64,000 nucleotides of DNA. It comes from a virus (taxonomy: Duplodnaviria; Caudoviricetes). Position 1 is the stretch's first letter. Every line of letters starts with the position of its first letter. The notes beneath the pieces were generated by a model. It had not been told where the DNA came from and searched no databases. It saw only the letters and a program-made list of their open reading frames with translations. This document shows, in pieces, positions 38,209-61,958 of the stretch. Where the stretch lies: the IMG/VR virus record IMGVR_UViG_3300037808_002146. One strand, 5' to 3'. A program made the position numbers and the translations under genes.

Positions 38209-39018
38209 CTAACCCGCTTCCTTGATACTAAGTATTCTGACTGGAGTCGCAATATACTCATTCCACAGAGAAGTTCGAACTTCACTGTCACATGAATCCA
38301 GTTCTCTGCAAATATTATCTTGATCTCGACCCGGATACTCTAACCGATGCATGTTACAAGCTCGTCTGCCAGTGTCAACTGCTACTGACTTAATGTCACT
38401 TCTAAAGCCTCCACGGACGTTACCTACTAGTTCTATCACCAAGTTAGACTCTGGGCGGAAGAAGGGACGTTCTGCAACCGTGAAGCATGATATATCGAAA
38501 GGGTGGCCTGAATCAATGGCTGCCTGGATTCTTTCTACTCCCGTCTGAGTTGTATAGTGACTCAAGCGCTTTTGGTTATTTAGACCACCATAAATCTGAG
38601 TGGTAAACTCTTCATCCATTAGCGCATAAGGCTCAAGATCGCCACGAGAATAAAAATAAGCAAACTTCAATTTACTTATATCGGGAAAGTAACTACCAAA
38701 CTCTCGATCTAATCCCCAAAATCGGTGGTTGGCAAAGTCCTCGATGAAGTCTAGAATGTTCTTCTGAGTTAGGAGATCATATCTCTCTACCTCTGTATTA
38801 TATTGAAAACCAAAATATTCATCGATTATCTGAAGTAGTCTCTGATTTAAACTCTGGCCTCCGCGAGTATCGACACCTTGCTTTTGAAGTTCTAGTAATT
38901 CTTCTACCACGAGCTCCCATTGCAAAAGTGTATGAAAAGAGGAAGACGGTTTAATGTATCCAAGCACTCTCGTCTTCTCATTCAGTAACCCTCTTATGTA
39001 TTCACGGAGTAGATTCAT
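38209..39018 (-). CDS. hypothetical protein with MNLLREYIR leader
   Basis: begins MNLLREYIRGLLNE. Confidence 0.7.
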   Translation of the reverse strand: MNLLREYIRGLLNEKTRVLGYIKPSSSFHTLLQWELVVEELLELQKQGVDTRGGQSLNQRLLQIIDEYFGFQYNTEVERYDLLTQKNILDFIEDFANHRFWGLDREFGSYFPDISKLKFAYFYSRGDLEPYALMDEEFTTQIYGGLNNQKRLSHYTTQTGVERIQAAIDSGHPFDISCFTVAERPFFRPESNLVIELVGNVRGGFRSDIKSVAVDTGRRACNMHRLEYPGRDQDNICRELDSCDSEVRTSLWNEYIATPVRILSIKEAG

Positions 39019-39632
39019 TTTTCTATTAGCCTTCCTGCTGCGCGCAGCTTATTTAAAGTTGTTGGCGGCTTAGTATATCGTTTACTGAGAGGTGATTGAT
39101 CCCACTTATCTCCGTATGTGTTGATTGTTTTTGACTGCAAGCAATCGTCTTCTTCGATGTCTGGCGTGAGCTTCTGGACATTTAGGTCAGTATAATAAGC
39201 AGCTTCTATGTCAGTTAAGTCCAGCTGGTATGATTGAACATCTCCTCTGTCATTGAAGTAATAGCTCCAAACATTTTGAGCTGCATTTGAAACTGATCTT
39301 CTGTCGGGTGTTAGACCGCCGCCGTCTTGCGTAGCAACTTCCATTGCAACATCATAAAGCATAGGACCCCAACCCTTTGTCGCCATGGTAGACACTACAA
39401 TGAATGCGCCGTCGCATGGGCCGGTTCCTTTGGAAGCGCGGTCAATGGTGACCTCGCCGTAGACGCCTCTGTACCCGTCTTTTGGTTCGCCATTTTTGTC
39501 TGAATAATATATAGTGTAGTCAGTAAGTTCGTCTTTGGAAACAGTGACGTATATGTCTTTTTCGACTAGCGCATCTACGCCTAAGGCGGCTTCCTTCAGT
39601 AACTCACTTATGTACTCGCGGAGTAGACTCAT
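39015..39632 (-). CDS. GNAT-fold-like protein with MSLLREYI leader
   Basis: KGWGPMLYD..LTPDR.SVS..A..VW; paralogue of 42086..42664. Confidence 0.55.
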   Translation of the reverse strand: MSLLREYISELLKEAALGVDALVEKDIYVTVSKDELTDYTIYYSDKNGEPKDGYRGVYGEVTIDRASKGTGPCDGAFIVVSTMATKGWGPMLYDVAMEVATQDGGGLTPDRRSVSNAAQNVWSYYFNDRGDVQSYQLDLTDIEAAYYTDLNVQKLTPDIEEDDCLQSKTINTYGDKWDQSPLSKRYTKPPTTLNKLRAAGRLIEK

Positions 39633-39633
39633 T

Positions 39634-39936
39634 TTAGTAACCGGCTTTTCCTCTAACGCCTACGTCCATGTCGCCGTAAGTGGTCTGTAGCTGCTCGCGA
39701 GATCTTACACGTCGGTCAGGAATCTCCTCCATTCCTGAGCCATCTTCGTAGCCTCGATCATAAGAAGCCATTAATTCCTCATCGCCATCGATCCAGTCAT
39801 GATAACTACCGGCGTCATACCCTTCCTCTGCATCTGTAGCACCAGAATCATATGCACTCACAATTTGATCCTCACGATCACGATTGCGGATCGATTCTCG
39901 AATAACTCTTCTTAGCTGGCGTTTGGTGATTCTCAT
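39634..39936 (-). CDS. acidic protein with MRITKRQLRR leader
   Basis: shared leader. Confidence 0.7.
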   Translation of the reverse strand: MRITKRQLRRVIRESIRNRDREDQIVSAYDSGATDAEEGYDAGSYHDWIDGDEELMASYDRGYEDGSGMEEIPDRRVRSREQLQTTYGDMDVGVRGKAGY

Positions 39937-40265
39937 TAGAGTACTCCTTTTAAAATCTGTTTCCAGGAAGCAGGCATATTGTCTGGCGATGTGCCTTCGT
40001 ATACCTCTTCGCGTTCGATGAAACTGTGATCTGCATGCGGATCATTCATACTATCTCTTTCTCCAGCTTTTTTTCCCGCCATATAATCTGGATCTTCTAA
40101 GCTACTCATAGATACGGGCATTTTCCCTTCTAGTCCATCAGTATAGCCCATGGAATTCATACGGTCTTTCCAGCTCTGACGTTTTGTAACGTCTGGAATC
40201 TCATTGCCCGCCTTGTCAATAGCTTCGCGAATAATTCTTTGAAGTTGTCTCTTTGTTATTTTCAT
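39936..40265 (-). CDS. protein with MKITKRQLQR leader
   Basis: shared leader; TAATG coupling. Confidence 0.7.
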   Translation of the reverse strand: MKITKRQLQRIIREAIDKAGNEIPDVTKRQSWKDRMNSMGYTDGLEGKMPVSMSSLEDPDYMAGKKAGERDSMNDPHADHSFIEREEVYEGTSPDNMPASWKQILKGVL

Positions 40266-40882
40266 TATGCTCCACCCATCCTAGTCACTGCGGCAACAAT
40301 ATCTTCGTAAGTAAATTCGCCTGGATAACTTGCTAACGCATCATCGATAGCTTGCTGATTTCCATCTTGCATCATAGGCGCATCTAAACTGTATCCCATT
40401 TCACGTGCGGCTGCTAACGCACCTTTTGGATCTGGATTTGATGGGGGTTTTCCATAACTACCACCCAAGGCAATTGCATGCTTGCCAGAGATAGGTGGGC
40501 CAGCAGTCTGGCTTTCATTAATGGTTTGTCGAATGATTCTTCTTAATCGTCTCTTTGTGATTCTCATTTTAGATTCCCCTAGTTCGCTTGGTACTTTATT
40601 TAATGTGCCAGGTGCCCAATGCTGGCGTACTGATTCTAGATCAGCTGGGTCTGCATCACTTCCATTGTATGCGTACGGATCGGGTGCTAGCAGTATTTCT
40701 ACAGGGACGGCACCTTCTCCACCATAACCGCTGTCATAAGCTTGCTGCGCGCCGGCTTCATTACTCCACCAAATTGGAGTCCGTGTTTTCTGAGATTTTG
40801 CAAGTGTACCATCGAGGCCGAGTAGAAACCAGCCTTTAGATTCTTTAATGATTCTTCTTAGCTGTCGTTTTGTGATTTTCAT
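40265..40882 (-). CDS. two-module protein, each module with a MKITKRQLRR-type leader
   Basis: second in-frame leader at 40567 preceded by the RBS-like GGGGAA. Confidence 0.7.
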   Translation of the reverse strand: MKITKRQLRRIIKESKGWFLLGLDGTLAKSQKTRTPIWWSNEAGAQQAYDSGYGGEGAVPVEILLAPDPYAYNGSDADPADLESVRQHWAPGTLNKVPSELGESKMRITKRRLRRIIRQTINESQTAGPPISGKHAIALGGSYGKPPSNPDPKGALAAAREMGYSLDAPMMQDGNQQAIDDALASYPGEFTYEDIVAAVTRMGGA

Positions 40883-41172
40883 AAAGTTTGTCCCGCGTTT
40901 TTTGCCTTTGCCTTTAGGGCTGAAAGAAAATGTCGAATTAATTCTAGCTGTCGAGCCGTCACCGTTTCATCCGCAGTATAATCATCTACGTCAGCTACAA
41001 AATTTTGAATCTCATACCACAAGTCTTTTGGAATTGATATAGAATCTCCTGTCGAACTTGGATCGGGGCCACCGACAGATGCGTACGGATCGTCGGGAGG
41101 GATTTGCTCATTGAGCAGTCTCTGCTTCTCTTCTCGAATGATTCTTCTTAGTTGCCTCTTTGTGATTTTCAT
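40879..41172 (-). CDS. protein with MKITKRQLRR leader
   Basis: shared leader. Confidence 0.7.
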   Translation of the reverse strand: MKITKRQLRRIIREEKQRLLNEQIPPDDPYASVGGPDPSSTGDSISIPKDLWYEIQNFVADVDDYTADETVTARQLELIRHFLSALKAKAKNAGQTL

Positions 41173-41184
41173 ACTATCCTTTTT

Positions 41185-42054
41185 TCAGTCGTACATTGGT
41201 GGTACGTGTTTAATTGGTGGACGCTTCTTTCTCAATTTAGCTCCGCCTTTATTCAAAACATCCATCACGGCTTGAAGCGTTGTGCTAAAATGTTTCATGT
41301 CGCTAGCTCTCAGGGTGACGCTCATATTACCCAAACGATCGCTAATGTCCTCTAGCGATATGGCCGTGACCTGTCCGCCTTTTTTTCGCGGTTGGTACAC
41401 AATATACTTCACATCAGCGTCACCCACCGCGGCTTGGAACGCGTCGCCTAGCGCGGCCAACTCATTTTTATTTGGGGATGAAACAATAGCGGTATTCAGT
41501 CGGTTGTCCTGTTCGTCGTATACTGCATCTTCTATTTCGGGATCACGCAATAAGTCTCTAACATCTTCAAAATCCGGGTCATCAAACTTCATGTCTTCCA
41601 ATTGGAGGTAAGCATCCTGTCCATACTCATCCACCATCAACCGGGCAAACTCATCGAGATCATCGGCCTGGAGCGCTGCTTTAGTTGCTGCAACGAAGTT
41701 ATAAGGCTGCGTACTCTCCCTAACGATTCTGATTAGTTGTCGCTTTGAGATCTTTATTTTACCCTCCTCCATAAGGTGGGCCAAGTCTACGTAGTTACCT
41801 TCCTTATCAAAACGGTAAGGCAACCCCTCCTCGTCCCATTCTACATCGTCATATTGATCTAGTGCAGAAGGGCGATCAGGGTGATCCGTAGGTGGACTCG
41901 AGGCCGGATGTCGGTCCTTTCTAGCGTCACGCTCGTTATCTGCGCGAACATTCATCTCATCATAATCGGCCTTCGATGGGATATAGATATCCCTTGGGGA
42001 TAGCATTTGGGCCTCTCTGATCATTCTTCTTAGTTGTCGTTTTGTGATTCTCAT
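41185..42054 (-). CDS. two-module protein with MRITKRQLRR leader
   Basis: internal IKISKRQLIRIVRES at 41757, preceded by GGAGG. Confidence 0.7.
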   Translation of the reverse strand: MRITKRQLRRMIREAQMLSPRDIYIPSKADYDEMNVRADNERDARKDRHPASSPPTDHPDRPSALDQYDDVEWDEEGLPYRFDKEGNYVDLAHLMEEGKIKISKRQLIRIVRESTQPYNFVAATKAALQADDLDEFARLMVDEYGQDAYLQLEDMKFDDPDFEDVRDLLRDPEIEDAVYDEQDNRLNTAIVSSPNKNELAALGDAFQAAVGDADVKYIVYQPRKKGGQVTAISLEDISDRLGNMSVTLRASDMKHFSTTLQAVMDVLNKGGAKLRKKRPPIKHVPPMYD

Positions 42055-42085
42055 TTTGTTACCTTTACGTATTCACACTGTAGTT

Positions 42086-42664
42086 TCATTCTTTTATCAT
42101 CCCACGCTTTCGTAGCTCATCCATCACGGGTGTACCCACTTTGCTTATCTTCTTTGATAAACCAGATTCATTCCAAGAAGGGCCGTACTTGTCGTACGCC
42201 GGTACTTGATCACAATCATCAGACTTGTCACCGGGCGTAAGCTGGTCTTCTCCGTAAGAATTCATGTAATCGATATCTAATTGGTCTACTTGGACGTCCT
42301 TACGATAGTTTGTGTAGTAATCCCAAACTGCTTCAGCTTCGTCGGAAACCTGGGTTCTGTCGGCAGCTAGACCACCTGTAGCTTCAATCGCAATGTCGTA
42401 GGCCAGCGGACCATATCCACCTTCCGCCTCAGCAATGCTTACGATGCTTGCTCCGGAGCACTTACCATGCATACCGTCGGTCGGATCGAAACTAACTTGA
42501 GCTAATGTTTTATTTTGCCGGTCTTTTACTAGTACTTGATATCTATTGATTTTGACTTTGCCGCCTTCTTCATCTTCTAGTCTATCGATCATTTTCATGA
42601 TTTTAGGGTGGATAGTAGTAGATTCAGTTAGCAGCTCTCTTATGTATTCGCGCAGTAGATTCAT
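42086..42664 (-). CDS. GNAT-fold-like protein with MNLLREYIR leader
   Basis: GGYGPLAYD..LAADR..VS..A..VW; paralogue of 39015..39632. Confidence 0.55.
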   Translation of the reverse strand: MNLLREYIRELLTESTTIHPKIMKMIDRLEDEEGGKVKINRYQVLVKDRQNKTLAQVSFDPTDGMHGKCSGASIVSIAEAEGGYGPLAYDIAIEATGGLAADRTQVSDEAEAVWDYYTNYRKDVQVDQLDIDYMNSYGEDQLTPGDKSDDCDQVPAYDKYGPSWNESGLSKKISKVGTPVMDELRKRGMIKE

Positions 42665-42930
42665 TTTTTAGACTTGTCTTTTTTATCGATGATGGCTTTT
42701 TGCAAGCCGTCTGGTAACGTAGTTTGATCACCGACAAGAGCTGGATTCGCGTTGTATTTGATTGTTGACTCTTGCTCAGCCTCATCAATATCTAGAGTCT
42801 TTGGATACCCTTTTTCCCCAGGCTTAGCTGGCCTTTCACCACGCTTACGCTTAGCATGAATATTTGCCCATAAGCCTTTACCTTTTTTTTCTATCAATAA
42901 CTCTCTTATATATTTTCGCAATAAATTCAT
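42661..42930 (-). CDS. basic protein with MNLLRKYIR leader
   Basis: GLWANIHAKRKRG segment after LLIE. Confidence 0.65.
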   Translation of the reverse strand: MNLLRKYIRELLIEKKGKGLWANIHAKRKRGERPAKPGEKGYPKTLDIDEAEQESTIKYNANPALVGDQTTLPDGLQKAIIDKKDKSKK

Positions 42931-42959
42931 TTTTTGTCTATTTTCCTATTATTAGATTG

Positions 42960-43373
42960 TTAACCTAAGTGATCATCCCATACTTCGTCAGCTGGATCTG
43001 GAAAGAAAGCCGGAAACCAACGAGAAGCTTTCATGCCTAGAATAGTTTTTTCCCACGGCGGTTCTTTATTTGGGTTTTGATTTTTCCACTCTTCTCTGGC
43101 TTCCTCTGCGCGGAGTGTTACGTTTGCAATTTTTTCTTTTAAATCTTTAACATATTTTTCGTCGCCATACCCAGGGATAGACTCTGCATTAGACTCCATC
43201 CATTTATGTAACTTCTCAAAGTAGGGTGCAATCATTCTCTCTGTGCCGTTATGGATTGCATCGTCTATTTTTTTGACAAAACCCATAGCAGTTTTAATAA
43301 TATTTTCTTCTAAAACTTTTTGCTGGTGTTCTTCTTCTAGCAATTCTCTTATGTATTCGCGGAGAAGATTCAT
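42960..43373 (-). CDS. protein with MNLLREYIR leader
   Basis: start reassigned to MNLL. Confidence 0.65.
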   Translation of the reverse strand: MNLLREYIRELLEEEHQQKVLEENIIKTAMGFVKKIDDAIHNGTERMIAPYFEKLHKWMESNAESIPGYGDEKYVKDLKEKIANVTLRAEEAREEWKNQNPNKEPPWEKTILGMKASRWFPAFFPDPADEVWDDHLG

Positions 43374-43582
43374 ACCTTGCACCCCTTGGGGAGTTGAGAT
43401 ACTAAGCTTTTTTTATAAACTTCAATGTTGGGTTGTGACCACTTAATTTGAGGGCAGTATATCCTATACTCTTCTTGATCTTTGAGAAACAGCTCGAGCG
43501 CGGTGACGTCGCGTTTCATATTATTTGTATCTTGGACAGAAGCAACGCTAAATACCGCTGCAAATAATATTTCAGCAATCAT
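43370..43582 (-). CDS. small exported protein
   Basis: hydrophobic N-terminus, two Cys. Confidence 0.55.
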   Translation of the reverse strand: MIAEILFAAVFSVASVQDTNNMKRDVTALELFLKDQEEYRIYCPQIKWSQPNIEVYKKSLVSQLPKGCKV

Positions 43583-43854
43583 CTCGCTTTCCTCGTAATC
43601 ATAATTTCTATTCGGCCCAGCGATCCTTTCATATATTCGATATCTTTTTCGATACCAATTATCTGCTTCGCATTAGTGTCAGATCCCTCTATTTTTTTCG
43701 ATAGTACGCTAATAACTGCCTCTGCATCTCCCAAGTCGTTCTTGAGTTCAGCAACTTTTACGTTTGTGCTCCAGACCCAACCGGCGAGTGGAAGGACTAA
43801 AACTGACATTATTAGTGAAAACACTTTCCACAAATCATCTTTTGAAACGGCCAT
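43579..43854 (-). CDS. membrane-anchored coiled-coil protein
   Basis: TM helix followed by heptads. Confidence 0.6.
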   Translation of the reverse strand: MAVSKDDLWKVFSLIMSVLVLPLAGWVWSTNVKVAELKNDLGDAEAVISVLSKKIEGSDTNAKQIIGIEKDIEYMKGSLGRIEIMITRKAR

Positions 43855-43877
43855 TGTAACTTACCTCTCTTTCTTTT

Positions 43878-44522
43878 CTACGAAGGATTTCCTAGGATTA
43901 TTTTAGTAGAGCTATGACTACCAAAAGACTTCGTATACCACCCATTTACTGATTTAAATAATGCGGGAGCGTTAGAGTCGGGATGAGCGCCATGAAAAAT
44001 ATAATCATCGCCAGACAATAGTTTAGCGACTTTGTTCTCATCTTCAACGGCAATAGCCCCTCTTTTGAGCATAGCATATGCAGGTTTACCACTCACTTCT
44101 CCCCACCAGTTACCTATACCTGCGATAGCACCCCCCGCTCTTAAATCAGCTGACTTGCTTTTATATTCTGCAGCTGCAAGGCCAGAGCCGTCATTTGCTG
44201 CGGCTCCCATTTTTACGCCAGCTATATCGGGCTTTCCCATTATAGCAACGTCTATGTCTGGATCATCATCGATATCTTTCACAACCCAATATGTGTACCT
44301 GTCTAAGCTGCTTGGGCTTGAAATTTTAAAATGGCCGCCAATAGGCTCATACGTTTGTTGAACTAAATCAAACAAATTTTGCTTGACTAACTCTCTTCTA
44401 GGATCTCCCGAAGCTAGCAAAGTCCATTCATTTTCAGGTATCACCCCGCCAGTTTCAAGAAACAACCCTCTAGAAATTGACTCTCTAATAATTTTTCTTA
44501 ACTGTCTTTTTTTGATTTTCAT
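43878..44522 (-). CDS. protein with MKIKKRQLRK leader
   Basis: start reassigned to the leader Met; DIDDDPDID segment. Confidence 0.7.
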   Translation of the reverse strand: MKIKKRQLRKIIRESISRGLFLETGGVIPENEWTLLASGDPRRELVKQNLFDLVQQTYEPIGGHFKISSPSSLDRYTYWVVKDIDDDPDIDVAIMGKPDIAGVKMGAAANDGSGLAAAEYKSKSADLRAGGAIAGIGNWWGEVSGKPAYAMLKRGAIAVEDENKVAKLLSGDDYIFHGAHPDSNAPALFKSVNGWYTKSFGSHSSTKIILGNPS

Positions 44523-44797
44523 ATGTAGATTCCCGTGTGGATTATCCCATTGCCCTCTATAGAGCCATCGGGCCAAACCTTAACCCAGTATTGATGCATA
44601 TCCTCAGCGTGCTCAATATGACCGGTGTCGATAATAACTTCGCCGTCTCCCTCTACCGTGACGGGAGTGCGATCGCCAAATATATCCTCAGCAAATTTAG
44701 TCTCTCTTGCCAGTTTTGCTTCCCTACCATGAATCGGTCCATACGTACTAACAGCTTCTTTGATAATTTTCCTAAGTTGTTGTTTGGTCATTTTCAT
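44519..44797 (-). CDS. protein with MKMTKQQLRK leader
   Basis: shared leader. Confidence 0.65.
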   Translation of the reverse strand: MKMTKQQLRKIIKEAVSTYGPIHGREAKLARETKFAEDIFGDRTPVTVEGDGEVIIDTGHIEHAEDMHQYWVKVWPDGSIEGNGIIHTGIYI

Positions 44798-44815: not shown

Positions 44816-45061
44816 TCATCTCAAGGAGGGATCTTTTTTTGTAGATTTTAGCTTTGGAAGGAAATCCTTTTTAAGCTTCAACAATCCTTCAAAGTTAACT
44901 TTTTGTCGAGCGTCAGTATACAGAACTTGCGGTTTTTTATACTCTCCGTTTATCAACAAATCATCAAAATTATAAAACTTTGTCTTCAGAGGTTTAGGAT
45001 TTGATCCCATCAAAAAAAATGTAAGGAGTAATAAGAGAAATATATTTTTACGCAATGTCAA
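44816..45061 (-). CDS. probable homologue of gliding-motility protein CglF/GltF
   Basis: signal peptide plus NFDD..I.G...KP...Y..AR.KV.F..L.....DF pattern, recalled from myxobacterial CglF. Confidence 0.6.
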   Translation of the reverse strand: MTLRKNIFLLLLLTFFLMGSNPKPLKTKFYNFDDLLINGEYKKPQVLYTDARQKVNFEGLLKLKKDFLPKLKSTKKDPSLR

Positions 45062-53616: not shown

Positions 53617-54849
53617 TTATCTGAATTGAATCACTTTTATTATATCTGAAATTTTCGAAACTATTCTTTCTGCTTCTGAACTTGAATCGCTAAGCTCTTT
53701 TGTCATTTCTTCTATGCTTTCGTATGGAGCTAAGAGAATGCTAGATACTTCTGCCATATCTTTTTGAGTTTCTCTAAAAATCTTGCCGCCATCTTCTTGA
53801 AGATTTGATTTCAACGTATTAAATAGGTAGTCTTCCATCTCCCTTTCGTAATCTTTAGCTGTAACTTTCTCGCCAAGCTTTTTAATTCCTGGAAGTTTTT
53901 TCATTTGCTGCATCAACTTGGACTCTTTAGCTGCTTCTCCCGAATCTTCATCAGCAAATTTTTCTTTTATTTCTTCGTTGCCCCTAGACATTTCCGATTT
54001 GAAGTCTGCTAAGTAGTTACCTAAATCAACTCCGGCAGATTTAGCAGAAGCTACCGCAGCTTCGAGTTGATTATACTCTTTTGCAGACATCAAATCGGAT
54101 AAAGCTTTCATTCTTTCAGGAATTCCCTCATCAACAATTTCTTTTATTGCGTTTTCTTTGATGCTTACAAATTCTTGAAACCCTTTTTCAATTTTGCTTA
54201 AATCAAAATCTAAACCTTGCCTTTTTATTTCAGACTCAATTTCTTTCCCAATATCGATACTCTCTCCACCAACCTCAAGGAGGACATCTAAATGGTCTCT
54301 GCCTAAGGATTCGCCGAAAAATAGATTCTTTAAATCAGCTAGAGCTCCCCTAATGGGTCCACGAGCATCGCCGGTTACTTTTCCGCCCGGGCCGATGCCG
54401 CCTTCTTCTTGGTCTTTCACAGCTAGCCTTTGTTCCTTAAAAACATCGTTTACGAACTTGGCAGCACCAACGCCTTTTTTCAGAGCCTGAACTCCTAGAT
54501 ACGCGGTCGGGTTAGCCATGAAAGCAACTATCTTAGCGTCCGTTCCCATACCATCGGAAACTTTTTTTACAAAATCGGAATGTTCTTTTGCAAACTGTTC
54601 TTGTTTTTGTTGGTATGCATTCAATAGTCTCTGCTTCTTAGTAGTGCTAAAGGTAAACAAAATCCTCATGTTATATAAAACGCCTGTTCCAACGTCTTTG
54701 AGCGTAAGCTTAGCGGCCTTTAGGACATCCGTAAAAGGAGATACAAAGTACTCCATGAATTCGTCATTAGACAAATAGATGCCATATTGAGAACTTTCTT
54801 TTATAATTGACTCTCGAATAAATATTTTAGTAAATTTTTCTTTAATCAT
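53617..54849 (-). CDS. helical protein, possibly head-internal
   Basis: IFIRESIIKE leader and LFFGE/VLLE motifs. Confidence 0.6.
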   Translation of the reverse strand: MIKEKFTKIFIRESIIKESSQYGIYLSNDEFMEYFVSPFTDVLKAAKLTLKDVGTGVLYNMRILFTFSTTKKQRLLNAYQQKQEQFAKEHSDFVKKVSDGMGTDAKIVAFMANPTAYLGVQALKKGVGAAKFVNDVFKEQRLAVKDQEEGGIGPGGKVTGDARGPIRGALADLKNLFFGESLGRDHLDVLLEVGGESIDIGKEIESEIKRQGLDFDLSKIEKGFQEFVSIKENAIKEIVDEGIPERMKALSDLMSAKEYNQLEAAVASAKSAGVDLGNYLADFKSEMSRGNEEIKEKFADEDSGEAAKESKLMQQMKKLPGIKKLGEKVTAKDYEREMEDYLFNTLKSNLQEDGGKIFRETQKDMAEVSSILLAPYESIEEMTKELSDSSSEAERIVSKISDIIKVIQFR

Positions 54850-55078
54850 GATTACTCTCTAACTTCAATTTTATGCCTGTTTCTCCGTAATAAATATCAA
54901 TCATTTTTCTTTCGAAACTATTTAGACTTTGTTTTTTAGTTTTAGGATCCCTAGTGCTAAAGCTTCTCCTCATCCGAGGGGGAATAGACTTTAACATAAC
55001 TTTCTTAAAATCCATCCAATTTTTATTATCTTCAAGAACTAAAAAAGCAAATTTTATATACTCTCTGTATTCTTCCAC
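54842..55078 (-). CDS. hypothetical protein
   Basis: 78 aa, coupled. Confidence 0.6.
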   Translation of the reverse strand: MEEYREYIKFAFLVLEDNKNWMDFKKVMLKSIPPRMRRSFSTRDPKTKKQSLNSFERKMIDIYYGETGIKLKLESNHD

Positions 55079-55082
55079 TTTA

Positions 55083-55706
55083 TTACCTAAATAACCTTAA
55101 TTTTTCAATATGACTTTTTATTAAAAAAGATCTGCAATCTAATACATTAAAGCCATCAAGTTTAGTCTTTCCATTTAATACTAACGATTTTTCTAAGAAT
55201 TGAAAAAATTTTTTCTTATCAGACTTAGAAAGTAACGAGATATTTTTATCTAAAGACTCAAAATTTTCCAACAAAAATGACATATCCGTAGCATACGATT
55301 CCCACTTAAGGGTTATTGGATTTTTCAGGATAGAAAAAAAGCCGTAATCAAAGTTTGCTAAATTTTCTAAAAATATAGAACACAATTTTCTAGTTGAGCG
55401 TGAACCCTTTGAGTCAATTTCTATAATTTGAATTAATTTCTTATCCTTGTTTATTCTGCACTTAGCCCAAATAGAGCCCGGGTTAATTGTTTTAATATCG
55501 AAAAAAAGAAATATAGCCCTAACTACTTTTAAAAAATCTATCCTAGGGTTGTCTAAACGCTTCTGAAGCTCCTTGTCAAAGAAAAATGATGAACCTATTG
55601 AATCATAACCAAAATAGACGGTATCGCCCTTTATCTCGTACAGAACTTGGTTAGCTTGCATTGATTCTAGGACATTACTAATAGTAAGATTACTTTTTTG
55701 AGCCAT
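55083..55706 (-). CDS. hypothetical protein
   Basis: 207 aa. Confidence 0.55.
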   Translation of the reverse strand: MAQKSNLTISNVLESMQANQVLYEIKGDTVYFGYDSIGSSFFFDKELQKRLDNPRIDFLKVVRAIFLFFDIKTINPGSIWAKCRINKDKKLIQIIEIDSKGSRSTRKLCSIFLENLANFDYGFFSILKNPITLKWESYATDMSFLLENFESLDKNISLLSKSDKKKFFQFLEKSLVLNGKTKLDGFNVLDCRSFLIKSHIEKLRLFR

Positions 55707-56502
55707 TTACTTTTTGAGCAGATCTTAATTGCATCCTTAAGTGCTTGAGTAAGCCATTGTAACTAGATCGAGATTCAGTACCTCTAAAACAAGAGTCTCT
55801 TGAAGATTGTGCATCGATTATCCTAGCTTCTAAATCATTCACTGAAACTTGAGATCCGAAAGAAACTACTTTTCCATTAGCACACTTGTGATTGCTTTTC
55901 GTATTTTCTAAAACTATCATAGCTTCTCTTAACTTCTCTGAAACCTCACCTACGACTATTGGGGAATTACTTAAAGTTTTTGTTGGTTGAGTTTTTAAAT
56001 CACTTTTGCTATTTGGTTTTTCAAAATCATCTGGCATAGGAGCATCTTCAACTCCACCAGCTTTATTCATAATAGTAGCAAACCCGGACATCATAGAGAA
56101 GAGTTCTTGCTTTTCATCTGATTTTAAGTTGTCGAAATATTTTAGTAAGCCAGTTTTCACTTTATCGTCTTTTAAGCTAGCACCAGATCTCAACGCATTC
56201 AACTGAGTTACAATATCTTTGAATTGAACATTTTTTGGCATTTTTTCTGGAATTTCGTAAGAAAACTTTTTGTCGCCTTTTTCTTTTTTGTCGACTAAAT
56301 CTAAATTATCGTTTTTTTCCTCAGAAGACTCTTCTTCGTCTACTTCGGACTTAGACGAAGATTTTTTCCTTATCCCTTCGTCATCAATATCATTTGATAT
56401 AGCTTCTTGTTTTTCTTTTTCCTCTTGCGAAGGATCGATTTGATCAGCAATAGAAGCATAAGACTCTAAGACAGCTTTTTTCAAAAGGTCGTCATCAATC
56501 AT
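55690..56502 (-). CDS. charged protein, possibly head-internal
   Basis: LLKKAVLE leader, acidic linker. Confidence 0.6.
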   Translation of the reverse strand: MIDDDLLKKAVLESYASIADQIDPSQEEKEKQEAISNDIDDEGIRKKSSSKSEVDEEESSEEKNDNLDLVDKKEKGDKKFSYEIPEKMPKNVQFKDIVTQLNALRSGASLKDDKVKTGLLKYFDNLKSDEKQELFSMMSGFATIMNKAGGVEDAPMPDDFEKPNSKSDLKTQPTKTLSNSPIVVGEVSEKLREAMIVLENTKSNHKCANGKVVSFGSQVSVNDLEARIIDAQSSRDSCFRGTESRSSYNGLLKHLRMQLRSAQKVNGSKK

Positions 56503-56902
56503 TTAATATCTCCTTGTCTACTAAAGACAGTTCTAAAGAGTAAGTATCTTGATTATATTTAAAACAGTCTATATTTTCTATATTGCTAGAATCTATAGCG
56601 ATGCCTAAACTATCACATGTGATAACAAAAGTATCTAAAGATAAAATAAAGCTAACAATATCTGCGTTTATCAATAAAGAGACTCTAGATAGTTTGTTGT
56701 CCTTAGACGATATAGAAAAAGAGTCTAGCTTACATTCGAAATTATTGCTGCCGAAAGATATCGAAAAATCTATAGATTTGTCTGTATAACTTAGCCTATC
56801 TTTAAGAGATTCAGATACTATTTCATTACCAGGGTTACCCAATATTCTTCTGAATTCATCATTCACGTAATCACCCACCGTTAAAACTCGCAGAGACATC
56901 AT
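56495..56902 (-). CDS. hypothetical protein
   Basis: 135 aa. Confidence 0.5.
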   Translation of the reverse strand: MMSLRVLTVGDYVNDEFRRILGNPGNEIVSESLKDRLSYTDKSIDFSISFGSNNFECKLDSFSISSKDNKLSRVSLLINADIVSFILSLDTFVITCDSLGIAIDSSNIENIDCFKYNQDTYSLELSLVDKEILND

Positions 56903-57251
56903 AATAGATATTGTCTACTTCCGAGAGGAAAGCTTTAAAATGATTACTAGCCATCATGTGGCGGGGTACCGTTATCTCTACTTCGTCTTTGTTGTAAACA
57001 TAATTTAAAGAAACCCTGATTCCATGTTGCTGTTCTAGATCGAAAATATATTCACAAAAAGAATGCTGCGAAATTCTTGACGAAAAAGAGAAAACTTTAG
57101 CAAAAAATTCCGAGCTCTCCTCCCAGCCAGTACTACTCTCAACTGAACATGGCGTTACGCTTTTGGAAATTGATAACTCGTTAGGCAAAAAAGAAGGGCT
57201 ATTGAATTCTCTCAGAAAACCTTCTCTCATGACGTTTTTAAGTTTCATCAT
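56871..57251 (-). CDS. degenerate pterin-4a-carbinolamine dehydratase-like protein with leader
   Basis: W...F.KVFSF....FC.....EQQH...Y..VEI pattern after GFLRE. Confidence 0.4.
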   Translation of the reverse strand: MMKLKNVMREGFLREFNSPSFLPNELSISKSVTPCSVESSTGWEESSEFFAKVFSFSSRISQHSFCEYIFDLEQQHGIRVSLNYVYNKDEVEITVPRHMMASNHFKAFLSEVDNIYYDVSASFNGG

Positions 57252-58426
57252 AATCCCAAGCTTGAAGTCTTGTTTTCGAAATCGTCAGTATCATCGATAG
57301 CAGAATATGTTATATCCATCTTCTCTTTTGCAGACTTCTTATCCCAAGCGTCTTTTACAGCTTTCACAAAATCAGCATTTGAAAGAAAATCTTTTTGGTA
57401 TTTGTCTGTATTAGATTTGATGAAGTTCGATGCTGCAGAAACGAGATTATCCATATCTTCAAGGTTTGTATCAGGGAAAGCTTTGTTTAGCTTCATTCTA
57501 ATTTTTTTACTATTGATAGGCGAAAGGCCCACAGTTTGGCTAAAAACCATATTTCCTATTTGAGATGGTATATTGGCAGAAGAAATCTCTCTTTTTAATT
57601 CTCTATCTCTTGCATTTCTAATTGGCTTCAAAGCTGGCTCTAAAAAGCCTAGATTGAAAAAGCTTAAAAAAGCAGGATTGGTTAGAGTGTAATCAGACTT
57701 TTTCAAAGCTGCAGCTTCTTCGGGGCTTAACGATTCTGAGTCTTCTAAAGTTTTAACCCAAATATCTCTTGCATAATTTTTTGCTTTTTGAATTTGGTCA
57801 TCACCAATCAAATATATAGCAGCCATTTTGCTCTTTTTTCGTCCGATCCACTGTTTTGCTCCAGATTCTCCAGATACTCCTGGCATCAAACCGGTTTTCA
57901 CTAAATCCGAAAGCGAAGCGTCACCTGATGATTTTGATGCTTTGAATTTTTTTGATTCGCCTGATTCTTCTTCTGATTCTTCTTCTACAGAATATCCAGA
58001 TCTAAATTCTTCTGGCATATCGCTGTCATCAGGAAGTTCAAACTCATCATAGTCTCCGTAACCTTCATTTACATTCTCGTCTTCTCCGCCTCTTTTTAAA
58101 ATATCTTTAATTTGTGAATATACTAAGGCTACTTCTTCGTTACTCATTAATTCGGATAGCGCTTTAATAGAAGCAGCTAAATCAGAAGGAGTTTTTGGAA
58201 CGTAGTTGTCATCTTCAACAGGAGGTCGAGACATAATAGAATTTATCCCCATGTTATCGCTTGGTTGTAGTGGCAACTCCTTAGGAAGTTCTGGCTTTGG
58301 ATCAGTTTCTTTTTTAGTTTGGTGAGCGGCAAATTGTCCAGCTCTGTGATCTTCGGTAGATCTTAGATTGTAAGAAGTTTCAAAAAGAATTTTATTAATG
58401 ATTTCTTTGACATTTTTATATTTCAT
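57248..58426 (-). CDS. hypothetical protein, possibly head-internal
   Basis: IINKILFE leader, acidic linker. Confidence 0.6.
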   Translation of the reverse strand: MKYKNVKEIINKILFETSYNLRSTEDHRAGQFAAHQTKKETDPKPELPKELPLQPSDNMGINSIMSRPPVEDDNYVPKTPSDLAASIKALSELMSNEEVALVYSQIKDILKRGGEDENVNEGYGDYDEFELPDDSDMPEEFRSGYSVEEESEEESGESKKFKASKSSGDASLSDLVKTGLMPGVSGESGAKQWIGRKKSKMAAIYLIGDDQIQKAKNYARDIWVKTLEDSESLSPEEAAALKKSDYTLTNPAFLSFFNLGFLEPALKPIRNARDRELKREISSANIPSQIGNMVFSQTVGLSPINSKKIRMKLNKAFPDTNLEDMDNLVSAASNFIKSNTDKYQKDFLSNADFVKAVKDAWDKKSAKEKMDITYSAIDDTDDFENKTSSLGL

Positions 58427-58474
58427 GTTATACCACCTCGAAGTTAATTATCGGTTAAAATTAAGACTATGCCA

Positions 58475-58912
58475 TCAATCGGCTATTTTATTAGCAACGT
58501 ACCCAGAACCAAGAGCAACTAAAGCCCCAAATACAAAACCACCGACGAACCACCATTCTGATGATACATCCTTTTTTTCAAGCTGCTTTACCGATAAGTT
58601 TATTTGTTTTCTTAAAAAATCGTTTTGTGATTTATAAACAGATATTTCAAACTCATTAGCTATTTTTAACTTTTCAACTGCAAAATTACAGTTTGATTTT
58701 TGGATTGCTATTTCTTCTTTTAGCTTTAACTGGCATATCTCTTGAGAGCTATTGAGTTTCACTAACATCTCGGCTACTGCTTCTTGGTTTAAAAGAGTAC
58801 CGGTGAACGGAACTATTTCTCCCTCGTTCACCGTTTTCACTGCGGCTTCTTGTGCGAACGCCGGAGTAAACAGCAACATGAATGAAAGTAAGATGCATAA
58901 AGTTTTTTTCAT
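58475..58912 (-). CDS. exported coiled-coil protein with C-terminal TM helix
   Basis: signal peptide, VPFTGTLL, coiled coil, C-terminal TM. Confidence 0.6.
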   Translation of the reverse strand: MKKTLCILLSFMLLFTPAFAQEAAVKTVNEGEIVPFTGTLLNQEAVAEMLVKLNSSQEICQLKLKEEIAIQKSNCNFAVEKLKIANEFEISVYKSQNDFLRKQINLSVKQLEKKDVSSEWWFVGGFVFGALVALGSGYVANKIAD

Positions 58913-58948
58913 GAAACAATAATATCTCGTGCTTAGATAAAGTTTAAG

Positions 58949-59359
58949 TTAGTTATCAATCTTGTCTAAGTTCTTTACGTTGAGGGATTTAGCGAGATAG
59001 TTAGTAGCTTTTCCAGCGCTTCCATTCTCTAGAGATAACTCTATTTTCTCTCGAAATGCTACCTTAATTAAATCCTTTTTTTTCTCGTAAATTTTTCTTA
59101 ACTTCGCGATTTCAACTTCGTGGTTTGATTGAGCTTTTTCTATTTTTTCTTCTCTTATTTCGTTAGCAATAATTACTTCATCTAAAGCAGCGACTCCAGC
59201 TTTTGTTGATTCTTTTATTACTTCGCTCGTTTTGTTTTTCTTAGTAAACAATATACTTCCAAAAATAGTTACAACTACCCCTAAGAAGAATTGCCAGTAT
59301 TTTTTAATAAATTCGTATGATTTTGAAAAAAACGATTTAACCGCTAGCCATTGGATCAT
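58949..59359 (-). CDS. membrane-anchored coiled-coil protein
   Basis: TM helix then charged heptads; spanin-like topology. Confidence 0.55.
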   Translation of the reverse strand: MIQWLAVKSFFSKSYEFIKKYWQFFLGVVVTIFGSILFTKKNKTSEVIKESTKAGVAALDEVIIANEIREEKIEKAQSNHEVEIAKLRKIYEKKKDLIKVAFREKIELSLENGSAGKATNYLAKSLNVKNLDKIDN

Positions 59360-59559
59360 GAGTTTTTACCGTGCTTCCACTGAACTGCTAAGTCTACGAG
59401 AGCCTGAGAACCAATATAAGCTAACGTTACTGCAACCCAATCTCCGCTGGTTAATGTACCACCAAAACATAGCCCGGTCGCGGTAATCCACGCTAAAAAT
59501 TTTCTTGATATAAATCTCTCTAAATGTTTATCAGCGAATGCTTTTACTGCCTGAGTCAT
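59356..59559 (-). CDS. holin-like small membrane protein
   Basis: SRKFLAW followed by two TM helices. Confidence 0.45.
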   Translation of the reverse strand: MTQAVKAFADKHLERFISRKFLAWITATGLCFGGTLTSGDWVAVTLAYIGSQALVDLAVQWKHGKNS

Positions 59560-59604
59560 ATTGCACCTCCATGTTAGTATTAACTATCACGTTAAAGCAA
59601 AATA

Positions 59605-59871
59605 TTACTCTTCAGGATTCCAAGGAGATCCGGAAACTATTTCATCAAAAATATCGATAGACTCGACATTCGTAATTTTTTTTAAATCTTTATTCTTTTT
59701 GTTACTTTTTAGTTTTTGCACTAAACTTTCTAGGTAGGGATCTTTATCAACTAAGCATGTTACTAAACCTGAAATTATCTCTTGCATAGATAGTTTGTTT
59801 TTAAAAGCAAGTATTCTAAATTCAGAGTGTACTGTTTCGTTGAGATTGATATGGACGGATTTTCTATTCAA
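59605..59871 (-). CDS. ribbon-helix-helix-like DNA-binding protein
   Basis: KSVHINL...FRILA...SMQEII. Confidence 0.5.
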   Translation of the reverse strand: MNRKSVHINLNETVHSEFRILAFKNKLSMQEIISGLVTCLVDKDPYLESLVQKLKSNKKNKDLKKITNVESIDIFDEIVSGSPWNPEE

Positions 59872-60473
59872 GCCGCTCCTTCGCCTCCGCCGGCACCAAC
59901 AGCAATAGGGGTTGGTAACTCTCTCTGAGATTGATCTTTTTCATAGTCAGAGCGGTAATCGATGCTAAATCTTTTTTGCATTATGTCTAAGAAACTTTCC
60001 TCAGTATCTTCGCTATATTTAGAAATTAGATAATCCCTAGCTTTCGACATAATAATTTCTTCGATATCTAGTAGAACATCTGCATTTTTAATAATCCTAG
60101 CAGTTTCAGCAGCAAACCGCTCTATGTCTAGGTCCGGACCATCCTCTGATTCTGAGAGAAGAGCTGCCTTTAGGGAATACGACTCTTCTTGCTTTTGTAC
60201 TGCAGCACTTTTTAGTGCGTCTGTTTCAATATCAACAAATAAAGCGTTTAAAGAATCGTCTAGGCTTTTGTTAAGCTCAACTTTATCGTCTTTAGATACT
60301 TCTACTTCTTCTTCGTCACTAGACTCTTCGGAGTCTTCGGTAGTTTCTTCCTCGGTATCTTCTTCAGTGTCTTCTTCAGTGTCTTCGTCTTCTGGAGCTT
60401 CAGCTAGCATTCGGCTAGATCTCCTAAGACCTGATGCTAACTCTAGGAATTCTTTAATGTCGTCTCTTTTCAT
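59868..60473 (-). CDS. acidic protein, possibly prohead core/scaffold
   Basis: RMLAE followed by EEDT repeats; ALLSE motif. Confidence 0.55.
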   Translation of the reverse strand: MKRDDIKEFLELASGLRRSSRMLAEAPEDEDTEEDTEEDTEEETTEDSEESSDEEEVEVSKDDKVELNKSLDDSLNALFVDIETDALKSAAVQKQEESYSLKAALLSESEDGPDLDIERFAAETARIIKNADVLLDIEEIIMSKARDYLISKYSEDTEESFLDIMQKRFSIDYRSDYEKDQSQRELPTPIAVGAGGGEGAA

Positions 60474-60475
60474 TA

Positions 60476-61162
60476 CTATTTTCCTTGCTTTGCTTTAGAC
60501 ATAGCTTCGACTTTTGCAATTCTTTCTTCTATCCTAGACCACCTAAGTTCTTTCATCATTGCGAAAGTATAAGATCTTTTATCGCCTAGGTAATCTCGGT
60601 AATATGCGTGCTCCCAGCAATCCAAAACCACAACCGGATAGCTAGCAAAAGGAACATGCTTACTGTTTAAGTCGATTATAACATTCATATACCGATTTAA
60701 GAAAAAGTTATATACAGTCACGGCCCAACCATTACGAGAACTAAGAGCGCACGCAATAAAATCCTTTTGCCACGCATCAAACGATCCAAAATCTCTCTCC
60801 AGTCTCATGAAAGCTATTGAGTCCATGTTGATAACTGAATTTTGGTCTCCTATATTTTCGAAATAATAAGCATGCAAAAAAGAAGCGTTTAAGTTATAAA
60901 CTTCGTCTTCCTTGAGGGATCGAAGCTTAGAGTTGTTAATGTCCGCTAATTCTCTCTCGGCGGTATCTAAAAAAGCTGATACTTCATTCAATTTCTTGAC
61001 ATGATCTTCCAGGATTTGCTGGTGGCTTTTCTTAGTTTTTTCGCTTAGAAGTTCGGTAGAGATTTCATACTTCTTAGACTGCGTAACGTACGCTTCATTT
61101 AATTCGTTTTTAAGAGAATTGTTTATCTCTTTTAAAACTCGCTTTTTCATATCTTTCATCAA
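60476..61162 (-). CDS. Fe/Mn superoxide dismutase with N-terminal extension
   Basis: HQQILEDH, LHAYYF, FGSFDAW, GWAV, DCWEHAYYRDY. Confidence 0.9.
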   Translation of the reverse strand: MMKDMKKRVLKEINNSLKNELNEAYVTQSKKYEISTELLSEKTKKSHQQILEDHVKKLNEVSAFLDTAERELADINNSKLRSLKEDEVYNLNASFLHAYYFENIGDQNSVINMDSIAFMRLERDFGSFDAWQKDFIACALSSRNGWAVTVYNFFLNRYMNVIIDLNSKHVPFASYPVVVLDCWEHAYYRDYLGDKRSYTFAMMKELRWSRIEERIAKVEAMSKAKQGK

Positions 61163-61536
61163 TCAACCTCGTAGTTCTTTTCAAAATCGTCTTCATCAAT
61201 AGAAAATTCAGAGTCGTTCGCGTCTGGCATTTTAACTAACTCTTCTTCTTGGCCAGCTATTACATGAGATGTAGAAACTGGGGCTTGAATCCTTGGAGAT
61301 TCTGGAGTTCGAAGGGTAATTTTAATTACCCCGTCTTTGTCTTTTATCTTTTTTATCGTATATTCAAAACCAGATTTCTTATGCCTAACTTTCAAATCAG
61401 GCTCTAAGACTATTCTGCCTTTTTTATCGCTAACGGAAGTCTCTTTTAGAAGAGAGACTATTTTTAATCTATCTTCGTATTCTTTTAGTAGAAGAGCTTT
61501 TAAAAAAGTTTCTGGTCTGTTCATCTTAAACCTCAT
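61159..61536 (-). CDS. hypothetical protein
   Basis: LKALLLKE and SLLKE motifs; acidic tail. Confidence 0.6.
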   Translation of the reverse strand: MRFKMNRPETFLKALLLKEYEDRLKIVSLLKETSVSDKKGRIVLEPDLKVRHKKSGFEYTIKKIKDKDGVIKITLRTPESPRIQAPVSTSHVIAGQEEELVKMPDANDSEFSIDEDDFEKNYEVD

Positions 61537-61957
61537 TATTAACTAAGTATTTTCTACAAATTATTCCAGACTTATCTAGAATACCTAAACCATCGCTATC
61601 ACGATAATCTTCGGTATACACTATTTCGGAAATGCCGGCATTCACTATTGCTTTAGCGCACATTTTGCAAGGGCTTAAAGTCAAATACATGACTTTCCGC
61701 TTAGGATTATTATAGTCCATTTTTAGCAAACAGTTTATTTCTGCATGAATAAAACCAGAATGTCCGGGTACTTCAGATTCAACTTTGTTTGGACCGCCGG
61801 CATGGTTCCCGTTGTACCCAACTGATAAAACTTGTGTATTGTCAGAAGTTACTACTATAGCACCTACTTTATATCTAGGATCATACGATCTTTCGGAAAT
61901 TGAGTTTGCTACATTTGCCCAAACTTTATCCCAAGATGGCCTTGATTCATTTATCAT
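61526..61957 (-). CDS. dCMP deaminase
   Basis: VGAIV, GYNG, HAEIN, PCKMC. Confidence 0.92.
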   Translation of the reverse strand: MINESRPSWDKVWANVANSISERSYDPRYKVGAIVVTSDNTQVLSVGYNGNHAGGPNKVESEVPGHSGFIHAEINCLLKMDYNNPKRKVMYLTLSPCKMCAKAIVNAGISEIVYTEDYRDSDGLGILDKSGIICRKYLVNNEV

Positions 61958-61958
61958 A

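Follow-up and report, generated by a model that had tools for sequence, protein, structure and literature searches.

The internal proteins (IPs) of T-even phages have only a short N-terminal capsid-targeting sequence (CTS) in common. They are polymorphic, are injected into the host and inhibit type IV restriction enzymes (PMC3012670, PMC9026906, PMC12373910). T-even phages carry IPI, IPII, IPIII and at least 10 further Ips with this CTS (Repoila et al. 1994, cited through PMC12373910; Mullaney and Black 1996, as described in PMC9026906). Each of T4 Ip1-3 inhibits a different GmrSD enzyme, a type IV restriction enzyme attacking DNA that contains glucosyl-hydroxymethylcytosine (PMC12373910). T4 Alt, an ADP-ribosyltransferase packaged in the head, is trimmed at both ends by gp21 and injected together with the DNA (PMC9026906), and in the giant phages phiKZ and SPN3US gp21-like proteases process the ejection and inner-body proteins, cutting behind a short motif with a final Glu (PMC5694885, PMC7411985). 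In T4-type genomes, promoter-stem-loop repeats form mobile regulatory cassettes for modular shuffling (PMC2839356). Here we describe an array of genes at positions 38209-44797 of a 64,000-nucleotide (nt) stretch of viral DNA (IMG/VR record IMGVR_UViG_3300037808_002146), the whole of which is called the window below. Most genes of the array begin with one of two short peptides, here termed leaders, followed by otherwise dissimilar proteins, termed cargos. The array is probably a greatly enlarged counterpart of the T-even internal-protein loci, in which the leaders would serve for loading into the head and for cleavage and the cargos would be injected.

The array consists of fourteen tightly packed genes, all on the minus strand, twelve of them leader-tagged and two leaderless (Table 1). 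Seven begin with the type-1 leader M(K/R)(I/M)(T/K)K(R/Q)QL(R/Q)(R/K)(I/V/M)I(R/K)E, exemplified in the window by MKITKRQLRRIIRE, with start codons at 44797, 44522, 42054, 41172, 40882, 40265 and 39936. Five begin with the type-2 leader M(N/S)LLR(E/K)YI..LL.E, of the MNLLREYIRELLxE type, with start codons at 43373, 42930, 42664, 39632 and 39018. Both classes are 14 residues long. The same counts had been given by a first-pass annotation made from this DNA, and they hold with two starts corrected: the second gene begins at the ATG at 44522 rather than at the upstream TTG at 44576, and the first type-2 gene at the ATG at 43373 rather than at the GTG at 43382. Two second in-frame leaders that it had reported inside open reading frames (ORFs) are likewise present in the sequence. 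The internal type-1 copy at 40567 retains its ATG and has the purine-rich ggggaatctaaa upstream, and in the copy at 41757, with ggaggagggtaaa upstream, ATA replaces ATG. Elsewhere in the window, a six-frame scan found no leader motif.

At the level of DNA the leaders are repeats, as previously noted, and form two families. The first has 9 copies of ca. 45 nt with 69–84% identity to a reference copy, and the second 5 true copies with 76–84% identity. The chaining of genes by overlapping stop and start codons is also borne out, with six ATGA and two TAATG overlaps; the remaining gaps measure 1–31 nt. An all-against-all BLASTP comparison of the cargo parts found a sole related pair, the 192-amino-acid (aa) and 205-aa proteins (38% identity, E 8e-28), in agreement with the single paralogous pair reported earlier. 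The occurrence of such 14-residue N-termini on twelve genes within 6.6 kb cannot be chance. Two other accounts of the leader were rejected, namely a secretion signal, given that the leader has no hydrophobic core of that kind, and descent of the genes as a single paralogous family, given that the cargo folds differ.

The large ORFs of the window all lie on one strand and include Hsp70, a GroEL-like chaperonin, phosphoenolpyruvate carboxykinase, a T4-type RNA ligase and tail-fibre-like proteins. No close relative came up when cultured phages were searched at the DNA and protein levels, and the sole DNA match among them, 95 nt to cyanophages, is due to the GLWANIHAKRKRG module of the 89-aa array protein. 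Queries with the GNAT-like cargo (see below) and with 21-residue leader sequences gave no match among cultured phages. Searches of the array proteins against Pfam and PHROGs gave no match, the 89-aa protein excepted, protein atlas look-ups returned unnamed viral clusters or no match, and a literature search for the leader strings found no paper.

Among the uncultured viruses of IMG/VR the leaders are widespread. A degenerate DNA pattern for type 1 occurs in 107 stretches, with up to 11 copies per stretch and on contigs of up to 293 kb, and the type-2 pattern occurs in 27 contigs; in 14 of these both types are found. Fetched loci, labelled L (e.g. L019, L054, L133, L135 and L136), hold 403 type-1-led ORFs with a median length of 105 aa. 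After removal of duplicates, the 383 unique leader proteins of these loci form 213 cargo clusters, of which 158 have a single member. Pfam domains were absent from 86 leader-gene representatives apart from one weak EF-hand match (E 3.6e-4), the source sequence of which was not traced. The genome IMGVR_UViG_3300007513_000001 (G003 in the following), which is complete at 293,409 bp and has terminal repeats, shares long synteny with the window at 40–79% protein identity. It contains 32 type-1 and ca. 14 type-2 leader modules, ca. 45 tags in total, distributed over three regions.

The relatives also encode the protease that the first-pass annotation had invoked. A Peptidase_S77 prohead protease, of the T4 gp21 family, was identified in each of the nine large leader-bearing contigs tested, above the Pfam cut-off and with E values of 1e-24 to 1e-27, and also matches phrog_207 (E 1e-48). 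Their capsid protein is gp23-like and ca. 31% identical to that of T4 over the conserved part. From these relatives, with their S77 protease and gp23-like capsid protein, the array belongs to an uncultured marine jumbo-phage lineage with a T4-type head.

Conservation of the leader is strongest at its end. Across relatives the type-1 consensus is MKITKRQLRRII(K/R)E, with E14 kept in 402 of 403 copies, I12 in 397 and I11 in 390, and residues beyond E14 are variable. Judged by sequence only, the leader ends match the gp21 motif (L/I)-x-E, type 1 through I-(K/R)-E and type 2 through I-R-E at positions 8–10 and L-x-E at 12–14. The probable substrates of the lineage's protease have this motif too. 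The capsid proteins of four relatives contain Q(V/L)LRE followed by A or Q. In an alignment of the G003 capsid protein this LRE site coincides with the T4 cuts in gp23, FLTE/AEIGG, and gp24, LLRE/S (here and below, a slash marks the cut in T4 proteins and the presumed cut in marine ones), and the N-terminus of the lineage's scaffold protein, MSKNLYNEAIAE/A, may be compared with T4 gp22, MLKEQLIAE/A. Array genes took the first 23 places when 388 plus-strand ORFs of G003 were ranked by the fit of their N-termini to a type-1 position matrix. The next was a 143-aa gene of the head cluster (MAKISKSMLKGIVKE) at 17.5 bits, with the following non-array match at only 2.6 bits. This 143-aa gene belongs to the head-gene cluster that contains the protease gene, which it follows at a distance of a few hundred bases, and both the gene and its leader-like N-terminus are kept in 4 of 4 relatives examined.

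As a separate observation on these head genes, the motif (A)TGAATATTTA occurs 35–50 nt upstream of five genes of G003, those for the portal, a head-module protein, the scaffold and the sheath, and one other (positions 168601, 172054, 174505, 183836 and also 117063; loci L120 and L121), and is a candidate late promoter of the lineage. The T4 late-promoter consensus TATAAATA showed no association with the array in the window.

Type 2 can be compared with the T4 sequences directly. T4 ipII and ipIII begin MKTYQEFIAE/A, and mutagenesis of IPIII assigned residues 4 and 7 to targeting and residues 8 and 10 to processing (PMC9026906). At these mapped positions type 2 has L4, Y7 and I8 in 5 of 5 window copies and E10 in 3 of 5. 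A type-2 matrix built from the first ten residues of marine type-2 leaders only was run on 211 ORFs from 83 kb of T4, where it ranked gene 61.1 first, ipII second, ipIII third, gp67 sixth, gp24 ninth and ipI twelfth. Type 2 thus appears, from its residues, to belong with the T-even CTS and internal proteins; type 1 is out of their register. Gene 61.1 itself (NC_000866, 18966-19130) encodes a hypothetical T4 protein of 54 aa that begins with the capsid-targeting-like MKTFKEFIKE.

In AlphaFold2 models of two cargos the leader is a low-confidence helix outside a confident fold. A predicted complex of the G003 protease and a leader protein from the same genome scored 0.02; run with no controls, it speaks neither for nor against binding. 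A helix so placed could alternatively dock the proteins onto a partner other than the prohead, such as the phage's Hsp70/DnaK-type chaperone or a common host target, or could mediate oligomerisation, the proteins then acting in the cell unpackaged. DnaK prefers peptides with a hydrophobic core and basic flanks. The leader is a basic amphipathic helix lying outside the cargo fold, and type 1, with its hydrophobic core and basic flanks, resembles that preference; moreover, in G003 (281033-282952), L133, L135 and L136 an Hsp70 gene precedes the type-2 array, either immediately or with no more than two small genes in between, and many orthologues work leaderless. In the window, however, the Hsp70 gene (13520-15421) is 23 kb from the array, and docking would leave unexplained the invariant Glu preceded by I or L, the likeness to T4 CTSs and to the protease-adjacent head-module protein, and the match to the predicted capsid cleavage site. 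We consider this account unlikely.

The reading of the leader as a head-loading and cleavage tag can also be set beside its movement between proteins. The cargo of the 214-aa protein carries type 1 in the window and the type-2-like MQLVRKYVRALLIE, in the same register, in its G003 orthologue (52% identity over the full length), and in L133 a 407-aa ORF joins it to a preceding HD domain through an internal EFRKHVKKILKE junction. The GLWANIHAKRKRG cargo stands behind type 2 in the window and behind type 1 in 43 IMG/VR relatives, and a homologue in cyanophage S-ShM2 has the GLWANIHAKRKRG module without a leader. The G003 orthologue of the 269-aa protein is leaderless, with homology starting exactly at residue 14. 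Among 120 homologues of this cargo, all at least 62% identical, ca. 70% have type-2-like variants and 34 (ca. 28%) have no leader, and some carry an extra module or an upstream domain in front. The type-2-like leaders have diverged greatly in sequence and retain the hydrophobic-x-E end. A small basic module, GLWANIHAKRKRGE.PAK.G.K.YP (window 42661-42930), also occurs in T4-like cyanophages (S-ShM2, GU071096, 154386-155231) and moves among leader-bearing and leaderless proteins.

Leaders occur inside polyproteins as well. In L054 and L019, module B of the 289-aa ORF is a protein of its own with an N-terminal leader, and module B of the 205-aa ORF at 40265..40882 forms a separate 102-aa leader gene in L019. 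Since their modules stand alone behind leaders of their own in other phages, both double-leader ORFs of the window are fusions, as had been proposed. A 923-aa ORF of G003 (286576-289347; L126:6576-9347) reads, in order, DUF192, SILRKSIRLLLRES, a poly(A)-polymerase/CCA-like domain, VIVRLLTE/AAKG, the GNAT-like cargo, FVKEILKE/E and PAP2, and an 849-aa ORF of the same genome has three leaders, at domain junctions. Approximately a dozen unrelated multi-domain relatives of the GNAT-like cargo keep an internal ...REYIRELLTE/AAKG, a figure read partly by eye; an automated regular expression for internal leaders flagged just 2 of 32 multi-domain relatives owing to register shifts. As the leader also stands between the domains of polyproteins, it need not be N-terminal and resembles a cleavage or linker site as much as an address, and an element kept in both places fits a protease site better than an obligately terminal signal. 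The GNAT-like cargo and PAP2, joined in the 923-aa ORF of G003, are separate genes in the window. The family of the ORF at 41185-42054 (L019, L022, L045, L054 and L088) terminates in PPMYD or YYD, and the residues before this ending form a conserved basic stretch.

Structure prediction offers some indication of what two of the cargo families may be. The model of the 205-aa protein has a pLDDT of 92, with leader residues 1–10 below 50. Its 50 best VIA-align matches are almost all acyltransferases of the GNAT superfamily, at Z scores of only 5.0–6.7, the best Foldseek E value is 0.037 and there is no Pfam match. This family comprises 1651 representative clusters, in which C73, Y93, D94, E98 and R111 are invariant. 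The 205-aa and 192-aa pair may thus be GNAT-fold enzymes. The cargo of the 269-aa protein has 623 homologues with a mean column identity of 63%, and the model of this protein (pLDDT 89) has a leader helix at residues 2–11, with residues 12–18 below 50. The top rows of its Foldseek search are PARP catalytic fragments, with a best E value of 1.1e-3 and low TM, and VIA-align matches residues ca. 135–269 to CteC, DarT, Scabin, Tne2 and others (Z 4.2–5.7). Its modelled C-terminal half may thus have an ADP-ribosyltransferase-like fold. The role of the cargos is likely to be host take-over or counter-defence.

Cleavage might, however, occur with no delivery into the host. The leader would then be a processing or propeptide signal for the prohead protease, and the proteins either transient core components that are cleaved and expelled or enzymes kept inactive until cleavage. 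T4 gp67 and gp68 are prohead-core components of the former kind, cleaved and expelled, and the small acidic cargos are closer to these acidic proteins than to the basic IPs; the cleavage-type motif, the copies at domain junctions and the similarity to core-like proteins of the head module would be accommodated too. More than 200 unrelated cargo clusters, a rapid turnover of cassettes and enzyme-like folds are nevertheless not expected of structural filler, and the equivalent tag logic of T4 does end in injection (PMC9026906). This possibility, too, seems improbable.

The array had been described as expandable, and its content is indeed not fixed among relatives. Those expectations of the first-pass annotation that were open to computation were all borne out. 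L135 and L136 have an identical 270-aa protein, and the DNA common to both is 90–97% identical. Two genes of the array are specific to L135 and three to L136, and one pair of genes is transposed; these gains, losses and the transposition are leader-bounded. Within the array, all block starts are 0–1 nt from leader starts and the block ends after them are 32–40 nt into the next leader, with one further block end 12–34 nt upstream of the next leader start. Between L133 and the window, the 269-aa cargo is 87% identical and the set and order of cassettes are different. Every cassette starts with nearly the same ca. 42 nt and abuts the next, which makes homologous recombination between leaders possible, and such recombination would explain the turnover among relatives. 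Whole genes whose stop and start codons overlap are exchanged without scars, and recombination inside the leaders is the simplest explanation for this.

The leader DNA itself is less constrained than the peptide it encodes. Synonymous sites vary widely, L8 being encoded by six codons and I11 and I12 by three each, which points to selection mainly on the peptide, and at several positions the choice of codons is narrower than the background and A-rich (ACA, AGA, GAA). Exact DNA runs common to leaders have a median of 11 nt and a maximum of 24 nt (in L135). The conservation of the leader DNA is mostly explained by peptide selection together with the A-rich codon preference. This refines the proposal in the first-pass annotation that leader DNA acts as a recombination handle; cassette breakpoints do fall at leaders. 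That the element should matter mainly as nucleic acid, as a cassette recombination site or an unstructured A-rich translation start with the peptide as a passenger, is very improbable: the leaders are DNA repeats, several positions have a narrow A-rich codon choice and cassette boundaries coincide with leaders, but residues are fixed where synonymous sites vary, diverged type-2-like leaders retain the hydrophobic-x-E end, internal copies that have no start codon keep the peptide, and a role of the DNA in recombination is compatible with head loading and not an alternative to it.

The targeting, cleavage, virion retention, injection and cargo roles that we infer for the tagged proteins would fit together as follows. 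Each gene would be a cassette of a 14-residue leader and a cargo, the leader forming a short amphipathic helix outside the folded cargo. This helix would carry the protein into the core of the assembling prohead, where a gp21-type prohead protease would remove it after the terminal hydrophobic-x-Glu (I-(K/R)-E in type 1; I-R-E and/or L-x-E in type 2). The freed cargo would remain in the head and enter the host with the DNA. A leader between fused domains would allow the protease to split the polyprotein into its modules, and homologous recombination from leader to leader could swap, delete, insert or fuse whole cassettes.

Several points weigh against this reading of the array as an enlarged internal-protein locus. 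The ca. 45 tagged modules of G003 are far above the handful of T4 and might not all fit into one head. Most cargos, the small type-1 ones among them, are acidic, with 12–26% aspartate plus glutamate, whereas T4 IPs are basic DNA-binding proteins. Because ca. 28% of the orthologues of the 269-aa cargo are leaderless, tagging must be optional and this cargo must work untagged. Type 1 departs from the T4 CTS register (residues T4 and Q7) and resembles instead the 143-aa head-module protein of its own lineage. The link of the leaders to the head module comes from the position matrix and its ranking; strict leader hidden Markov models run against all reading frames of G003 recovered the arrays and missed the head-module proteins. 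Similarity over 10–14 residues cannot, moreover, prove homology. The protease was seen in relatives, the head genes of the window's own phage lying outside the 64-kb window. The boundaries of exchanged blocks at leaders are partly expected, because each gene begins with a similar leader. Finally, scans of the array for sigma-70 promoters and terminators gave matches at chance level, and the candidate late-promoter motif is absent from the leader arrays and from the upstream regions of the window.

A broader proposal can be put forward only tentatively. The leaders might be a dual-purpose module used throughout the lineage, at once a tag for head loading and cleavage and a stretch of homology for recombination that needs no dedicated recombinase. 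The arrays would then give each genome an integron-like, open-ended arsenal of ca. 45 injected effectors, taken from a pool of over 200 cargo families that include GNAT-like and ADP-ribosyltransferase-like ones, and probably aimed at host defences such as enzymes attacking the phage's modified DNA.

Table 1. Genes of the leader array and its PAP2-domain neighbour in the window.
Feature	Position	Strand	Match or remark
Gene 1: type-1 leader MKMTKQQLRKIIKE and 78-aa cargo; 92 aa	44519..44797	-	Cargo cluster of 10 leader proteins in IMG/VR loci
Gene 2: type-1 leader MKIKKRQLRKIIRE and 200-aa cargo; 214 aa from ATG 44522	43878..44522	-	
Leaderless 91-aa gene within array, with hydrophobic N-terminal segment	43579..43854	-	
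Leaderless 70-aa gene within array	43370..43582	-	
Type-2 leader MNLLREYIRELLEE and 123-aa cargo; 137 aa	42960..43373	-	
Type-2 leader MNLLRKYIRELLIE and 75-aa cargo with GLWANIHAKRKRG module; 89 aa	42661..42930	-	phrog_11180 and others
Type-2 leader and GNAT-fold-like cargo; 192 aa; paralogue of 39015-39632	42086..42664	-	
Type-1 leader, 85-aa module A, internal type-1 leader KIKISKRQLIRIVRE (41716-41757, ATG replaced by ATA), 176-aa module B; 289 aa	41185..42054	-	
Type-1 leader MKITKRQLRRIIRE and 83-aa acidic cargo; 97 aa	40879..41172	-	
Type-1 leader, module A, internal type-1 leader with own ATG MRITKRRLRRIIRQ (40526-40567), module B; 205 aa	40265..40882	-	
Type-1 leader and 95-aa cargo; 109 aa	39936..40265	-	
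Type-1 leader and 86-aa very acidic cargo; 100 aa	39634..39936	-	
Type-2 leader MSLLREYISELLKE and GNAT-fold-like cargo; 205 aa	39015..39632	-	
Type-2 leader MNLLREYIRGLLNE and highly conserved 255-aa cargo (helical domain, ADP-ribosyltransferase-like C-terminal half); 269 aa	38209..39018	-	
PAP2-domain neighbour, leaderless in the window; 519 aa	36643..38202	-	PF01569

The PAP2-domain neighbour is a doubtful member of the leader system; some relatives have the PAP2 domain as a fusion that follows leader-tagged cargo, in the 923-aa polyprotein of G003 and in 445-aa homologues. An 81-aa protein with a signal-peptide-like N-terminus is encoded upstream of the array in the window (44816-45061), and in L133, L135 and L136 the same protein is encoded on the downstream side of the array, with the 270-aa gene and the PAP2 gene as its neighbours on either side. 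This difference in position indicates that the array has moved relative to the 81-aa protein. Further along the window, on the minus strand at 53617-63380, additional proteins have short N-termini that end in hydrophobic-x-E and resemble degenerate leaders, for example MIKEKFTKIFIRES, MIDDDLLKKAVLES, MKRDDIKEFLE and MKDMKKRVLKE.

Injected proteins are the first phage products to meet the defences of the host. Should the leader prove to be a head-loading signal, its 14-residue motif would be a search key for hundreds of unannotated candidate injected proteins of marine viruses, and the T-even capsid-targeting principle would be old, widespread in the T4 superfamily and scalable to dozens of cargos. 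The array would also illustrate how a repeat within coding sequence drives the evolution of cassettes in nature, and the leader would be a candidate packaging tag for engineering the capsids of large marine phages.

Set against the known systems, the array comes closest to the T-even internal-protein loci. In both, otherwise unrelated small proteins have only a short N-terminal leader ending in (L/I)-x-E in common, a gp21-family prohead protease is encoded (here in relatives) and the loci are polymorphic among related phages, and the type-2 MNLLREYIRE... matches MKTYQEFIAE at mapped positions 4, 7, 8 and 10. They differ in that the leader has 14 residues here as opposed to 10, and in that two leader classes are interchangeable on the same cargo. 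There are twelve tagged genes in the window and ca. 45 tags in a complete relative, compared with three in T4, and the cargos are mostly acidic as opposed to basic. Leaders recur inside polyproteins here and the genes form tight tandem arrays with overlapping stop and start codons, and the phages themselves are uncultured marine jumbo phages only distantly related to T4.

The other systems each share one aspect of the array. A parallel to T4 Alt would be the possibly ADP-ribosyltransferase-like C-terminal half of the 269-aa protein, behind a short and putatively removable N-terminal peptide; no sequence similarity to Alt was found, and the structural resemblance is weak (Z up to 5.7; Foldseek E 1e-3). 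Phages phiKZ and SPN3US resemble this lineage in having many different head-loaded proteins trimmed at x-x-E, also within long precursors, but theirs are paralogous families with neither one common N-terminal tag nor leader-bounded cassettes, and the lineage here is T4-like rather than phiKZ-like. The mobile regulatory cassettes of T4-type genomes are likewise short gene-boundary repeats that coincide with insertions, deletions and replacements between close relatives; the repeat described here is coding, being the first 42 nt of the gene, whereas theirs is an intergenic promoter element. Bacterial polymorphic toxin and effector systems combine a conserved N-terminal trafficking part with variable C-terminal cargo. 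By analogy only, they too have one delivery module recombined onto many unrelated cargos, with spare cassettes in tandem, and they differ in organism, delivery route and length of the tag, and in that no immunity genes were seen in the array. Distinct from the T-even IPs are the scale, the two interchangeable leader classes, the use of leaders inside polyproteins, and the tandem cassettes with leader-bounded turnover.

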